From the UHGV virus genome UHGV-0169311: 45,203 bases of DNA. The stretch is one strand, 5' to 3'. Both the position numbers and the translations under genes were made by a program. This stretch comes from a virus. This document shows, one piece after another, positions 7,035 to 15,655 of this stretch (its first letter is position 1; each line of letters begins with the position of its first letter). Under the pieces are notes generated by a model. It was not told the DNA's origin. It searched no databases and worked only from the letters and a program-made list of their open reading frames with translations.

Positions 7035-7329
7035 CTCAATCCCCTCGTTTGCCCTTGTCGCCAGGCTGGCGGAACGTTTCAAACCTACTGCGCGTTAATC
7101 TCACCACCTCATTCCGGTCTTCGTATGCCCCGGACGGCTTCTTCGTGGGCGTCCTGCCTAGGTGGTTGTGTTGATGGAGTAAGTAAAACACCGCTTTACC
7201 ATTAAGTCAAGTAATGCAGATTAAAAAGGTAAAGCATAGCTGTATGTTGGGCGAAATTTATCCAGATTAGAGATGATTGCATCAACTAAAAGTGTGTATG
7301 ATGAAAAAAAACATCATTGAGGGTGGGAT

Positions 7330-7560: not shown

Positions 7561-7986
7561 TTATTTTCTAGATGATGTTGGGGACCAAGGTAACGTTATA
7601 GTATCTAACACTGTGTTTTTGAACATATTTTCAAAAACTGTTTTTGTACATACATATACATAATTTTCAAAAAACCAAGCATTTTCATTATAAAAATCCT
7701 CAGTTACTTCTTCATCGAGGTCACACTCAAATGTTAGTGTCAAGGTAGCCTCTGCCTTGAACAATACATCCTCACCATCATCAAAATCTTTTTTATCGCG
7801 AGGGAAACCAGTTATCGATGGCTTAACTTCAATAAAGAGCCAATTTCCATCTTCATCTTTTTGAGGAACAACGTGATGCTCAGAAAATTTTAAGCTATAT
7901 TTTCCGCCTTCAGAATTATCACTGTCGTCGATAAAAAGGGAAGAACCCTCGAGATCAAATCCCTTAAAGCGAATTTTATCAAGCAT
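7561..7986 (-). CDS. Hypothetical acidic protein, translationally coupled to hicB
   Basis: ATG at 7986 overlaps the hicB TGA (TGATG). 141-aa Asp/Glu-rich product; AT-rich DNA. Confidence 0.5.
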   Translation of the reverse strand: MLDKIRFKGFDLEGSSLFIDDSDNSEGGKYSLKFSEHHVVPQKDEDGNWLFIEVKPSITGFPRDKKDFDDGEDVLFKAEATLTLTFECDLDEEVTEDFYNENAWFFENYVYVCTKTVFENMFKNTVLDTITLPWSPTSSRK

Positions 7987-8459
7987 CAATGTGGCACTCC
8001 GTTGTCTACTGAAACTTCCCAATAGGTCTCTTCTGTACGTCTACGGGATGAGAAGAAAGTAACTTCTCTAACATCCCTCGGTTTTTCAAAGTGGTAGTGA
8101 ACCTCTTTTTTCCCATTAACTGACTCACTGACAGCCTGTTTTACATAATCGTTTAAAGTCATATTCTTAGCTTTAGCAGCTAAATATGCTTTTTTATGCA
8201 GGGATTCACCTATCCGGATGTTAAACGAACCACTCATTGTCTTATCTGGAGATTTTCCTATCTCTTCACAAGTGGAGAGGTAATCGTCCACGGCCTCCTC
8301 AAAGGCTGCACGGAGTTCTGCAACCGTTGCACCCTCATAAGTGACGAGATCATTTATACATTCGAGTTTTCCATGCATCACCCCATCTTCAAATGAAATG
8401 CTGGAGCTACCATAGTAACCTTTGTATTTCATCAAGTTATTCATGATCATCAATCTCAT
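7986..8459 (-). CDS. hicB: HicB-family antitoxin with C-terminal extension
   Basis: MKYKGYYG ... NDLVTYEGATVAELRAAFEEAVDDYL ... SGSFNIRIGESLHKKAYLAAKAKNMTLNDYVKQAV matches the HicB pattern (RNase H-like fold plus RHH) from memory; about 45 extra residues follow. Start ambiguous (ATGs at 8459, 8450, 8444). Confidence 0.75.
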   Translation of the reverse strand: MRLMIMNNLMKYKGYYGSSSISFEDGVMHGKLECINDLVTYEGATVAELRAAFEEAVDDYLSTCEEIGKSPDKTMSGSFNIRIGESLHKKAYLAAKAKNMTLNDYVKQAVSESVNGKKEVHYHFEKPRDVREVTFFSSRRRTEETYWEVSVDNGVPH

Positions 8460-8691
8460 CTAACAGCTGTTTAACTTCTTCCAAGACGTACCTTTTGAGG
8501 GTGTTTTCAGGATGAGGCTCATGAAAAATGACCAATCTATCAACACGTTGGTTGTAAAATTTACGGCCAGAACCTCGTTTAGCATTCAAAAGCTTGAAGC
8601 CATACTGGTTCATGAGAGTAACGAACTCATCCCAAGTAAAATTTTTGGGTAAGCCGTCTAACTTTGACTTTAGCTTTTCCTTTCTTCCCAC
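8437..8691 (-). CDS. hicA: HicA-family toxin (mRNA interferase)
   Basis: 84-aa ORF with GFKLLNAKRGSGRKFYNQ ... LVIFHEPHP ... LKRYVLEEVKQLL, the HicA/YcfA pattern (from memory); directly upstream of and overlapping hicB. Confidence 0.7.
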   Translation of the reverse strand: MGRKEKLKSKLDGLPKNFTWDEFVTLMNQYGFKLLNAKRGSGRKFYNQRVDRLVIFHEPHPENTLKRYVLEEVKQLLDEIDDHE

Positions 8692-8995: not shown

Positions 8996-9388
8996 TTACT
9001 CGGCATCGCCCTTAATCCGCCGCCCCATATATTTGGCGTACAGATCGTCGAGTTCCTTCAGGCGCAGTGATACCGCCTTAAGAACTCCACCCTGATCCTC
9101 TTCGGGGAGTTGACGGAAAAGGCGTAAAAGCTCTTGCTCATTACTTTTTAATCCATCATTGGGCCCTATATCCTGCCCCAAAACCCAGGCTAAATTCACA
9201 CCAAGCGCATCAGCTAGCTTAAGTGCGGAGTTTTTCCCAATAGTTCCCCTTACAAACCAGTTGTTAACCGACTGGGATGTTACGCCACAAATTCTGGCCA
9301 GATCTGCTTTTGAGAGATGTTTACTATTCGTGATCTCATTGAGTCGTCTGACCTGTGGGTTATCTGATTCGTGTGTATTTTTTCTCAT
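8996..9388 (-). CDS. HTH repressor-like protein (paralog 2)
   Basis: 130 aa from the ATG at 9388 (track start is GTG 9403). HTH segment SKADLARICGVTSQSVNNWF and C-terminal helix LPEEDQ ... LRLKELDDLYAKYM. Paralogous to 9408..9791. Confidence 0.55.
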   Translation of the reverse strand: MRKNTHESDNPQVRRLNEITNSKHLSKADLARICGVTSQSVNNWFVRGTIGKNSALKLADALGVNLAWVLGQDIGPNDGLKSNEQELLRLFRQLPEEDQGGVLKAVSLRLKELDDLYAKYMGRRIKGDAE

Positions 9389-9407
9389 GTACAAGAGTAT
9401 CACTTAG

Positions 9408-9791
9408 CTAATCAGCATCGCCCCTGATTCTGCGATTCATGTACTTGGCATATAGTTCATCGAGTTCCTTCAGACGCAGGGAGAAGATCCTTATCATATT
9501 CTGCTGTTCTTCTTCCGGTAACTGTCTGTAGAGCTCCAGAATACGTTGTTCATCAGGCTTAAGACCATCCTTCTCTCCAACATCCTCACCAAGTAGCCAG
9601 GGGACGGACACCCCTGCAGCGTCAGCAACCGCTAATGCAGAACTTTTGCTGATTCTTCCTGTTTTGAACCAACTGGAAACAGCTTGCTTACTGACGCCAG
9701 CAACCCTGGCCATCTCTGTTTTAGAGAAACCTTTCCTGTTCAGTTCTGTAAGCCTGGAAATCAGCTCATTTGTCATTGTTTTTTCGCTCAT
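9408..9791 (-). CDS. HTH repressor-like protein, probable prophage repressor (paralog 1)
   Basis: 127 aa; HTH segment SKTEMARVAGVSKQAVSSWF; short, no peptidase domain; divergent from the Cro-like gene across an operator-bearing intergenic region. Confidence 0.6.
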   Translation of the reverse strand: MSEKTMTNELISRLTELNRKGFSKTEMARVAGVSKQAVSSWFKTGRISKSSALAVADAAGVSVPWLLGEDVGEKDGLKPDEQRILELYRQLPEEEQQNMIRIFSLRLKELDELYAKYMNRRIRGDAD

Positions 9792-9889: not shown

Positions 9890-10114
9890 ATGACTGGTAT
9901 TGAGAAAGCTATTCAAAAGTTCGGCACAGGTGCGGCACTCGGAAGAGCGCTTGGATTTTCAAAAATGACAATTTCCAACTGGAAAAAAACTGGCATTCCG
10001 CCCGATCACATTCTCTCTGTTTTTGAGCTTACGGGGGTCACACCGCATGAGTTGCGGCCTGACTTATATCCAAATCCAACCGATGCCTTACCAGTGCAAG
10101 AAACGAGGACGTAA
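9890..10114 (+). CDS. Cro-like HTH regulator (YdaS-like)
   Basis: 74 aa with RBS GGAGG; HTH LGRALGFSKMTISNWKK; ELRPDLYP motif as in YdaS-type Cro proteins (from memory). Confidence 0.6.
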   Translation: MTGIEKAIQKFGTGAALGRALGFSKMTISNWKKTGIPPDHILSVFELTGVTPHELRPDLYPNPTDALPVQETRT

Positions 10115-10116
10115 AC

Positions 10117-10656
10117 GTGCAATCACTATCACTTCATCAAAATAGCGGATATCAACCGGCTGCGATGATAAATCGCAATCAACCTGTCTCGGTAGATAAA
10201 CATGACCAGATCCGCGATGCCGTTCGTGCGTGGGCGGGTGTAGATGGTCAGGATGTCGTTTCTGCTCTGATCATCGAAGAGTACCAGGCTCAAGGGGGAG
10301 ACGAGATCACTTTCCCTGATGACCTCAGCCGACAGCGTCAGAAGCTTTTCCGCTTTCTGGATAACCATTTCAACAGCGAACGGTACCGCGAAAACGTTCG
10401 CCAGCTGACTCCGGCAATCCTCGCTGTCCTGCCGATTGAATACCGCAATCGTCTGCTACCAGAAGACAACGTAATGGCTCGTCTGGCAAGGCTGGAGAAG
10501 GAAACCAGCGAAGCGAAGATTGCTGTCGCAATGGATGCGCCACGTCATCAGAAGCTGAAAGAGTTGAGCGAGGGGATCGTGGAGATGTATCGCGTTGACC
10601 CTGGGTTAACCGGTCCGTTGATGGAAATGGTGCAGATTATGCTGGGGGCTATATGA
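10117..10656 (+). CDS. YdaT-like protein (occupies the CII position)
   Basis: 179 aa; TPAILAVLPIEYRNRLL resembles the YdaT motif IPAILAILPRELRHRL (from memory); immediately follows the Cro-like gene. Confidence 0.45.
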   Translation: MQSLSLHQNSGYQPAAMINRNQPVSVDKHDQIRDAVRAWAGVDGQDVVSALIIEEYQAQGGDEITFPDDLSRQRQKLFRFLDNHFNSERYRENVRQLTPAILAVLPIEYRNRLLPEDNVMARLARLEKETSEAKIAVAMDAPRHQKLKELSEGIVEMYRVDPGLTGPLMEMVQIMLGAI

Positions 10657-13414: not shown

Positions 13415-13688
13415 GTACTGCGGTGAGGATTGCGACGGGCTGGTAGATATTGACAGAATCACTTTTCGCATCGTTGATATCGGTATGCGGATGCTGCAAC
13501 CGCACGAGCTATACCGCGCGCAGGGCTTCCCGGAGTGGTACATCATCGATCAGGACTATCGGGGGCAGAAGTACGCGAAGGACAAGCAGGTTGCGCGTTG
13601 TGGCAACGCAGTTCCGCCGCCATTCGCCGAGGCACTGGTGAGAGCTAATTTACCGGAGCTTTGTCAGCAGAAAGAGATCGCAGCTTAA
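13371..13688 (+). pseudogene. C-terminal fragment of a DNA (cytosine-5) methyltransferase
   Basis: RMLQPHELYRAQGFPEWY ... RCGNAVPPPFAEAL matches C5-methyltransferase motifs IX-X; no catalytic N-terminal motifs upstream; overlaps the Ead-like gene in another frame. Confidence 0.45.
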
Positions 13689-13787
13689 TGTCCGAGTTTC
13701 AGAACATGGTGTAACAAATCCTGCTACTTCAATGACGTAGATTCAAACCTGATATAATTAGTCTCTTCACAACACGAGGAGCCTAAA

Positions 13788-14024
13788 ATGCACCATTACA
13801 TGATCCCTATCAACGGAACTGTTCACCTGATCAAGACTGACTCTCTAATCCCTGAAGGGATTGAGTATAGCTTTGAAGGAGAAAGTCTAATCTGCGCTCA
13901 TGCCACTTTTAAATCTGGGACGTATGGCTTCCTGATACCAAAGGGAAATCAGTTGAATAGAGAGCATGCGTTCTGGCATGTAAGTGGAATTCACCCTAAT
14001 CCCCTGGGAATGGATAAATCGTAA
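13788..14024 (+). CDS. Hypothetical protein in an AT-rich insert
   Basis: 78 aa, RBS GAGGAG; lies between two diverged copies of the methyltransferase 3' end. Confidence 0.45.
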   Translation: MHHYMIPINGTVHLIKTDSLIPEGIEYSFEGESLICAHATFKSGTYGFLIPKGNQLNREHAFWHVSGIHPNPLGMDKS

Positions 14025-14216
14025 TCCATAATATGCATGCCATCGTCCTGAACATACGGTGGCATGCATCCGGCACTACAACAGAAACGTTAAAGTGCAA
14101 ACAATACAATTCGAGCAATATTCAACCTGTCACAGATGGCGAATACCACCGCCATTTCGTGCATTCTGTGGTTTCTATTACCCATTGCGTTAATGCTGTC
14201 CAATCATCAGCTCGCT

Positions 14217-14276
14217 GAGGCGCTGGTTAGGGCTAACCTACAGGAGCTTTGTCAGCAGAAACAAATAGCGGCGTAA
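14217..14276 (+). repeat. Diverged second copy (~80% identity) of the 60 bp at 13629..13688
   Basis: Both copies encode ...EALVRANL(P/Q)ELCQQK(E/Q)IAA-stop; the second has no methyltransferase body upstream. Confidence 0.6.
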
Positions 14277-14293
14277 TAAAACATCGCTAATTC

Positions 14294-14320
14294 AACCCGC
14301 TACGGCGGGTTTTCTTTTTT
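14294..14320 (+). terminator. Rho-independent terminator
   Basis: AACCCGC-TACG-GCGGGTT stem-loop followed by TTTCTTTTTTT. Confidence 0.6.
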
Positions 14321-14383
14321 TACTACTGACAGAAAATTAACAATTTGTGCTCTTAAAACGTTGATCATTTCCGCGCATAGGTA

Positions 14384-14403
14384 TACTGTATAAAAACACA
14401 GTA
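14384..14403. promoter_or_regulatory. LexA box (SOS operator)
   Basis: TACTGTATAAAAACACAGTA: perfect CTGT-N8-ACAG, 19 bp upstream of the dinI-like start. Confidence 0.7.
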
Positions 14404-14421
14404 CATGCAATTGGGGCCATT

Positions 14422-14655
14422 ATGAAAGTTGAATTAACCATTGATCGCATGAAAGAACTTCCTAAAGGCGCAGTACCAGCACTGGAGAAAGAACTGCTTA
14501 AGCGCCTGAATGATCACTATGACAATTGCAGGCTCACAATCCGCCGTGCCGGGGCCGATGGGTTAAGTGTTTTTGGTGGTGACAAGGACGATAAAAAGAA
14601 AATTGAATCAATCCTCCAGGATACCTGGGAAAGCGCTGACGACTGGTTTTATTAG
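14422..14655 (+). CDS. dinI: DinI-family protein
   Basis: 77 aa; colinear with E. coli DinI (MRIEVTI ... LSV.G..K.DK..I..ILQ.TWESADDWF) from memory. Confidence 0.8.
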   Translation: MKVELTIDRMKELPKGAVPALEKELLKRLNDHYDNCRLTIRRAGADGLSVFGGDKDDKKKIESILQDTWESADDWFY

Positions 14656-14772
14656 AATTGCGCTTAAGGCTGGCGCGCATTTTTCAGAATACCGCAATTT
14701 GCGTAACCCTCTGATGCTGCTGCCGACAATCTTTAATCGCGTCTGTTAGTCGCTCGAAGGGAGAACATAAAT

Positions 14773-15021
14773 GTGAGTGATTCAGCTTTGCAAACGTCAG
14801 AAGACAACTGGTATGACATTGTAAGAAGGTCTGACGGCTGCGTGGTGTTTAGCTTTCCTTCATCGGGCAGGCATCTAATTTATCGCGTCAATGGCATGGT
14901 TTCTATGCGGCCTTTGCTGGATGATGAAGAGGTCTTTACTCCTAATGGTTTTATGCAGTTTATTCACCGTCTCGGCTACCGGGTAACCCCACCTTCTGAT
15001 AATATGAAATCAACGGTCTGA
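14773..15021 (+). CDS. Hypothetical protein (GTG start); candidate antirepressor by context
   Basis: 82 aa, RBS GAAGGGAG; second gene of the LexA-box/dinI unit. Confidence 0.4.
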   Translation: MSDSALQTSEDNWYDIVRRSDGCVVFSFPSSGRHLIYRVNGMVSMRPLLDDEEVFTPNGFMQFIHRLGYRVTPPSDNMKSTV

Positions 15022-15055
15022 ACAACCGTAACCTACTGCGCCACGGAGAGAAACC

Positions 15056-15655
15056 ATGGCGCACGAACTACAACTCATCAAGCATTCCTCAGGAATCCTG
15101 ATCCCCGCTACGCCGGAGACCAGTGATTTACTGCAATCAAAAATCAAACTCGGCTCCGTACTGGTGGCTGAGTTCCGGCAGGTACGCAACCCGGCCTTTC
15201 ACCGTCGTTTCTTCGCGTTACTCAATCTCGGTTTCGAATACTGGGAACCCACCGGCGGGGCAATCTCCTCCAACGAACGCAAGCTGGTAACCGGCTATGC
15301 CAAGTTCCTTGCCTCATTCGCGGGAAGTGAAGCAGCACTCCTGGATGCTGCTGAGCAATATCTGGACCGCATCGCCGATAAGCGCGCCGGTAGTATCAGC
15401 ATCTGCAAATCCTATGACGCATACCGTGCATGGGTGATCATCGAGTCTGGCCACTACGACGCTATCCAGCTTCCTGACGGCACTCTTCGTAAACACCCCC
15501 GCAGCATTGCCTTCGCCAACATGGACGAAACCGAGTTCCAGCAGCTGTACAAAGCCGCGCTCGATGTTCTGTGGCGCTGGGTATTGTCCCGGGCATTCAA
15601 GGACCAGCGTGAAGCGGAAAACGCCGCATCGCAACTCATGAGCTTTGCGGGGTGA
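15056..15655 (+). CDS. Phage nin-region protein (DUF1367-like, from memory)
   Basis: 199-aa ORF with conventional start; MA..LQLIKHSSGILIPATPE N-terminus. Confidence 0.5.
   Translation: MAHELQLIKHSSGILIPATPETSDLLQSKIKLGSVLVAEFRQVRNPAFHRRFFALLNLGFEYWEPTGGAISSNERKLVTGYAKFLASFAGSEAALLDAAEQYLDRIADKRAGSISICKSYDAYRAWVIIESGHYDAIQLPDGTLRKHPRSIAFANMDETEFQQLYKAALDVLWRWVLSRAFKDQREAENAASQLMSFAG

Follow-up and report, generated by a model that had tools for sequence, protein, structure and literature searches.

The window, meaning the whole 45,203-nt stretch of viral genome UHGV-0169311 that was analysed, contains at 14294-15655 what is, by its sequence elements, a predicted LexA-repressed dinI-gfoA-irsA operon of a Gifsy-like lambdoid E. 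coli prophage. The operon and its control region consist of the following features.

14294-14321, plus strand: Rho-independent terminator-like hairpin and T-run (7-bp stem with 5 GC pairs, followed by TTCTTTTTTT)
14361-14387, plus strand: putative PdinI promoter (−35 TTGATC at 14361-14366, 15-nt spacer, −10 TATACT at 14382-14387)
14384-14403, plus strand: LexA box TACTGTATAAAAACACAGTA (from a consensus scan and a conserved offset in related viral loci)
14422-14655, plus strand: dinI homologue of 77 aa, first gene of the operon (Pfam DinI, E=3.8e-26; PHROG 189)
14656-14772, plus strand: dinI-antirepressor spacer of 117 nt (hairpin at 14659-14677; Shine-Dalgarno AAGGGAG at 14757-14763)
14773-15021, plus strand: gfoA/gfhA-type antirepressor gene of 82 aa with a GTG start (76/82 residues identical to the GfoA ORF of contig L017)
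15056-15655, plus strand: DUF1367 gene, an irsA homologue (Pfam DUF1367, E=2.2e-91)

Control region, dinI and spacer

The E. coli LexA consensus palindrome TACTGTATATATATACAGTA served as the reference for the LexA scan. At up to three mismatches, it finds a single site in the 45-kb window, the LexA box at 14384-14403, while no LexA site at this threshold is present in any of 100 shuffled windows. The looser pattern CTGT-N8-ACAG occurs just twice across the window. The sequence-only reading had placed a near-consensus LexA box 19 bp upstream of a DinI-family gene, and this description is essentially correct. Specifically, 18 nt separate the box from the dinI ATG at 14422, and the protein matches Pfam PF06183 over the full profile with 91.6 bits, against a gathering cut-off of 24.2.

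The −10 hexamer of the putative PdinI (14382-14387) overlaps the LexA box. A sigma-70 consensus scan with spacers of 16–18 nt gave no promoter match at this position. The geometry TTGAnn-N15-TATACT is also present in Gifsy-2, in a Klebsiella phage and in phage Chris1, and we infer PdinI (TTGATC-N15-TATACT) from its conservation in four divergent loci together with the literature. The −10 hexamer TATACT of the window is of the functional type; for comparison, a single −10 SNP in PdinI-gfoA abolishes Gifsy-1 induction in strain D23580 (PMC5322425). The strong terminator-like hairpin at 14294-14321 aligns with Gifsy-2, and a terminator-like element also precedes the LexA box in the Gifsy prophages (Lemire, Figueroa-Bossi and Bossi, PLoS Genet 2011, PMC3121763). 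Its putative role is insulation of the SOS operon against upstream transcription. An Rfam scan of 13600-15300 returned a sub-threshold chance match only and no Rfam family.

The region around the spacer (14626-14765) is unusually conserved, yet the antirepressor genes behind it cannot be aligned with each other when one is GfoA-type and the other GftA-type. Against Gifsy-2, the final 30 nt of dinI show 97% identity and the 110-nt spacer 85%, but the body of dinI only 61%. The same spacer 32-mer is found in at least 120 viral contigs, ahead of either antirepressor type. The single-sequence fold of the spacer is no better than that of shuffled sequences (z=0.19), and RNAalifold on four diverse spacers gave −7.6 kcal/mol with little covariation, which lends no support to a structured RNA. 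One possibility is that the conserved spacer, with its weak terminator, acts as an attenuator and so determines the threshold for induction; another is a linker for recombination, through which antirepressor cassettes are exchanged.

The gene order dinI, GTG-start ORF, DUF1367 is common to the window, coliphage mEp237, Gifsy-1 (that of LT2 included) and Gifsy-2, and the DUF1367 gene at 15056-15655 is syntenic with STM1020 of Gifsy-2. The annotations of its product disagree, with DUF1367 in Pfam and 'NinB/Orf recombination mediator' in PHROG 319. Deletion of irsA was without effect on induction in the Gifsy system (Lemire et al. 2011, PMC3121763).

Identity and conservation of the 82-aa protein

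As noted in the sequence-only reading, dinI is followed by an 82-aa ORF of unknown function. Specifically, the protein has no match in Pfam, and its sole PHROG match is PHROG 340 ('unknown function'). A Shine-Dalgarno sequence, AAGGGAG, lies 9 nt before its GTG.

GfoA, GfoR and GfhR were located in fetched viral contigs through the primers listed in Table S1 of PMC3121763. Contig L017 matches five primers of Gifsy-1(14028), namely pp752 and pp754 from the promoter region (both 40/40), the gfoR tagging primer (41/41) and two gfoA primers (22/23 and 38/40). Therefore, the 82-aa ORF of L017 is GfoA. The exact 3' gfoA tagging primer, searched in the loci, shows a mismatch at its last 2 nt, which is probably due to the way the primer was designed or to a typographical discrepancy and carries no significance. 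The window ORF is identical to the GfoA of L017 at 76 of the 82 positions (92.7%). Its N-terminus reads MSDSALQT, where the primer-encoded GfoA reads MSNSALQK, and its C-terminal stretch reads HRLGYRVTPPSD, where the primer-encoded GfoA has RRLGYRVTPPSD in the same place. By these comparisons, the 82-aa ORF is a GfoA/GfhA orthologue. With a GfhR-type repressor in the same prophage (88% identity; see below), the earlier proposal that this ORF is the antirepressor candidate is supported.

The protein is conserved down to about 50% identity, and the family alignment contains 17 invariant positions, the RPLL and RLGY motifs among them. A PDB sequence search with the 82-aa protein gave 0 matches. 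The AlphaFold2 model consists of four β-strands and one helix at moderate confidence (pLDDT 66.6), and a Foldseek search of this model against the PDB returned nothing at E<=0.001 and thus no fold assignment. Homologues with 38–69% identity are present in Klebsiella phage ST974-OXA48phi18.2, Escherichia phage PHB10, Citrobacter phage Chris1 and Salmonella phage SPN3UB. All four lie directly after dinI, with a near-consensus LexA box 18–19 nt before the dinI ATG. The 781-bp module of the window is 99.4% identical at the DNA level to coliphage mEp237, in which the ORF is gp49, a 'hypothetical protein'. The module is present in 52 of 5426 complete E. coli genomes, and the ORF is a 'hypothetical protein' in RefSeq/PGAP as well.

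Related loci were collected with a 32-nt pattern taken from the spacer between dinI and the antirepressor gene; a scan of viral contigs for this pattern gave at least 120 loci. Among the 111 with enough upstream flank, CTGT-N8-ACAG is found at the same offset in 110 and 12 nt closer in the remaining one. The LexA box occurs in 10 variants, all with TACTGT...ACAGT, and the centre alone varies. Behind the spacer, 81 loci have a GfoA-type ORF and 31 a GftA-type one, and the DUF1367 gene comes next in 96 of 105. Where the immunity region was captured, GfoA-type ORFs occur with GfoR/GfhR-like repressors (26 loci) and GftA-type ORFs with GtgR-like repressors (14 loci). There are one or two exceptions, L122, which is clear, and L086, which has an odd repressor. 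That the antirepressor type tracks the repressor type is supportive, with the counts overstating the support because the loci are non-independent lineages.

Immunity region and prophage context

The immunity region of the window contains two repressor genes and three operator-like sites.

7183-7199, no strand assigned: third GTAAA-N7-TTTAC site, candidate operator of the left operon (motif scan)
8996-9388, minus strand: second, GfoR-like repressor paralog of 130 aa (counted from the ATG at 9388; the open frame reaches up to a GTG at 9403)
9408-9791, minus strand: GfhR-type non-cleavable repressor of 127 aa (88% identical to the short form of GfhR in contig L040)
9801-9817 and 9851-9867, no strand assigned: two inverted repeats GTAAA-N7-TTTAC that resemble operators, in the repressor-cro intergenic region

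Contig L040, which supplied the GfhR reference, matches the gfhR primer at 40/40. The second paralog shares 61% identity with GfoR and 54% with the 127-aa repressor, and in the HTH region it hardly differs from GfoR. Both paralogs (127–135 aa) match HTH_3 and Phage_CI_repr only in Pfam, and the same scan found no Peptidase_S24 or LexA-like cleavage domain in either. The description of the genes at 8996-9791 as short HTH repressors lacking an autocleavage domain is thus borne out. A repressor of the autocleavable lambda CI/LexA type was considered as well and rejected, both paralogs being without a C-terminal S24 peptidase domain and its Ser/Lys dyad. The 127-aa GfhR-type repressor is the predicted primary target of the antirepressor.

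GTAAA-N7-TTTAC occurs at three sites in the window, and none of 100 shuffled windows has three or more. The site at 7183-7199 is some 1.8 kb left of the repressor genes, and the three sites are candidate OR and OL operators. In L040, the same motif is also found upstream of gfhR. Since the window shares with L040 both a GfhR-like repressor and this motif, its immunity is of the Gifsy-3 type.

The GfhR-like and GfoR-like genes at 8996-9791 are arranged in tandem on the minus strand, 4 nt apart. Such tandem repressors recur in mEp237 and in several Salmonella-type loci (L013, L035, L104, L105 and L114), and most loci have one repressor. The two non-cleavable repressors may be co-transcribed, with the GfhR-like one having its operators in the prophage. 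The GfoR-type operator TAAAC-N5-GTTTA is absent from the window. Because the second repressor has a GfoR-like recognition helix and the prophage has no GfoR-type operator, it could extend immunity to heteroimmune Gifsy-like phages. The fuller version of this idea, in which one SOS-controlled antirepressor releases both repressors and the spacer is an attenuator or recombination linker, is speculative, and we consider it rather doubtful.

The window is an apparently complete lambdoid prophage. Besides an integrase and RecT/RecE, it has Cro- and CII-like genes in the immunity region, O/P for replication, RusA and Q in a nin region, and a large terminase subunit; the long ORFs further downstream are consistent with head and tail genes. 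The genes in the Cro and CII positions (9890-10656) are named 'YdaS_toxin' and 'YdaT_toxin' by Pfam, compared with a repressor and a CII-like activator by PHROGs. For lambdoid regulators such as these, 'toxin' in the Pfam names is probably misleading. On the minus strand at 7986-8691, a gene for a HicB-like antitoxin of 157 aa (PHROG 9151) overlaps the 84-aa ORF that lies upstream of it; the two may form a HicAB toxin-antitoxin pair within the transcript of the immunity region. The segment 13371-14277, immediately before the SOS operon, contains a 66-nt direct repeat (13624-13689 and 14212-14277, 82% identical). The repeat is a duplication of the 3' end of a truncated gene for a C-5 cytosine methyltransferase, and it brackets a 78-aa ORF (13788-14024, PHROG 30079). 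This repeat-flanked segment has the appearance of a moron-type insertion or of a scar left by recombination.

Proposed mechanism and comparison with known systems

In the Gifsy prophages of Salmonella, the repressors are short and remain uncleaved during induction, and induction requires a LexA-controlled locus in which a terminator-like palindrome and a LexA box precede a dinI homologue, with a small antirepressor gene that starts with GUG and then an irsA homologue behind it (PMC3121763). The statement in the sequence-only reading, that LexA-controlled antirepressors are encoded beside dinI-like genes in Gifsy prophages, matches this report. The antirepressors are GftA in Gifsy-2, and GfoA and GfhA in Gifsy-1 and Gifsy-3 of ATCC14028; they bind the repressors and release them from DNA. 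Experimentally, GfoA inactivates two repressors, one of which is GfhR (PMC3121763).

The best overall explanation for the window, at a probability of about 0.88, is a GfoA-type SOS antirepressor operon that drives prophage induction. What sequence comparison establishes is the presence and conservation of the elements, the orthology, and the match between repressor type and antirepressor type. LexA control, repressor binding and sufficiency for induction come from the literature on the orthologues, and by analogy they would operate in this prophage too. In the lysogen, LexA bound to the box that overlaps the −10 element of PdinI, together with the upstream terminator that blocks read-through, would keep the operon silent. 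Upon DNA damage, RecA would become active, LexA would cleave itself, and the operon would be transcribed. The 82-aa product would then bind the GfhR-type repressor (9408-9791), and possibly the adjacent GfoR-like paralog too. Stripping of the repressor from the GTAAA-N7-TTTAC operators would derepress the early promoters and lead to lytic development. Points against this reading are the short 15-nt promoter spacer, missed by the consensus scan, the hairpin at 14659-14677, which could limit expression of the antirepressor, the non-independence of the related loci and the moderate confidence of the AlphaFold2 model.

It is unlikely that the operon, although GfoA-type, is not the decisive switch here, the prophage being cryptic, induced by another route, engaged mainly in trans action, or buffered by its second repressor. 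Trans action is extensive among the Gifsy-like phages, GfhR being a target of GfoA, and GtgR a target of FsoA, which has no role in its own phage (PMC3121763), and the window does have two repressor paralogs. However, with genes for integrase, RecET, O/P, Q, terminase and tail the prophage looks complete, it has a cognate repressor of the GfhR type together with the operators, and neither repressor has a cleavage domain for another SOS route.

The hairpin and T-run at 14659-14677 are terminator-like and lie directly 3' of dinI, as would be expected if LexA governed dinI alone, with transcription terminating there and the 82-aa ORF expressed from elsewhere or never. This is very improbable, because Gifsy-1 and Gifsy-2 have nearly the same spacer and hairpin, yet their antirepressors are co-transcribed from PdinI and required for mitomycin C induction (PMC3121763, PMC5322425). 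Moreover, a scan between dinI and the 82-aa ORF found no promoter-like site.

A fortuitous or non-functional frame, to which the GTG start, the lack of a Pfam family and the label 'hypothetical' everywhere might point, can be dismissed in view of the protein-level conservation to about 50% identity with 17 invariant residues, the correctly spaced Shine-Dalgarno sequence, and two findings in the Gifsy system (PMC3121763): a gftA frameshift in Gifsy-2 abolished activity, so the inducer there is a protein, and gfoA expressed from PBAD is sufficient for induction.

The system with which we identify the window operon is already known. Its biology was established in 2011 for the Salmonella Gifsy prophages, and homologues in E. 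coli were already remarked by the authors (PMC3121763). The gap is one of annotation, as the ORF is 'hypothetical' in RefSeq/PGAP and mEp237 and of 'unknown function' in PHROG 340. Transfer of the GfoA annotation would flag such prophages as SOS-inducible via antirepression, and would also flag potential cross-induction by the antirepressors of co-resident prophages. Beyond annotation, the window offers the tandem GfhR-like/GfoR-like repressors and a conserved spacer common to differing antirepressor operons.

Among known antirepressors, Rem of the cryptic prophage Qin is likewise a small E. coli prophage protein and is a reported antagonist of a short GfoR-like repressor; it was identified as a DicA antirepressor by iterative searches starting with GfoA (bioRxiv 10.1101/2023.04.14.536235). 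Homology to Rem was not detected here; hhalign of the GfoA-family profile against Rem gave a probability of 0.2%. Tum of coliphage 186 and AntC of N15 resemble the window system in that a LexA-repressed antirepressor inactivates a non-cleavable repressor. Tum carries a DinI-like half (PMC3121763). Unlike in the window, Tum joins an antirepressor part and its DinI-like part in a single fused polypeptide, in the opposite order.

GftA (Gifsy-2 and Gifsy-1 of LT2), considered here together with FsoA (Fels-1), is encoded at the corresponding position of its operon, where the preceding spacer is 85–97% identical. It is likewise a small protein with a GUG start that acts by binding a short non-cleavable repressor. 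BLASTP of the window ORF against GftA detects no similarity (E=0.98). A weak match is obtained with hhalign of the GfoA-type profile against GftA (probability 28%, E=6e-4, colinear over 50 columns), in keeping with the description of GfoA and GfhA as 'more distantly related to gftA' (PMC3121763). GftA belongs to PHROG 4847, compared with PHROG 340 for the window ORF, and it pairs with repressors of the GtgR type, not the GfoR/GfhR type.

The closest system is that of GfoA and GfhA in Gifsy-1 and Gifsy-3. As in the window, the antirepressor starts with GUG and lies between dinI and DUF1367/irsA, and a terminator is followed by a LexA box 18–19 nt before the dinI ATG. Similarly, the cognate repressor GfhR is 88% identical to that of the window and has the same operator motif. 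The two differ in host, Salmonella in one case and E. coli in the other, the window prophage being related to mEp237. They also differ in the centre of the LexA box, which is ATAAAAAC in the window and GTTTATAT in the GfoA/GfhA system. Other than that, the window differs by its extra GfoR-like paralog beside the GfhR-like one, an arrangement found in only a subset of the related loci.
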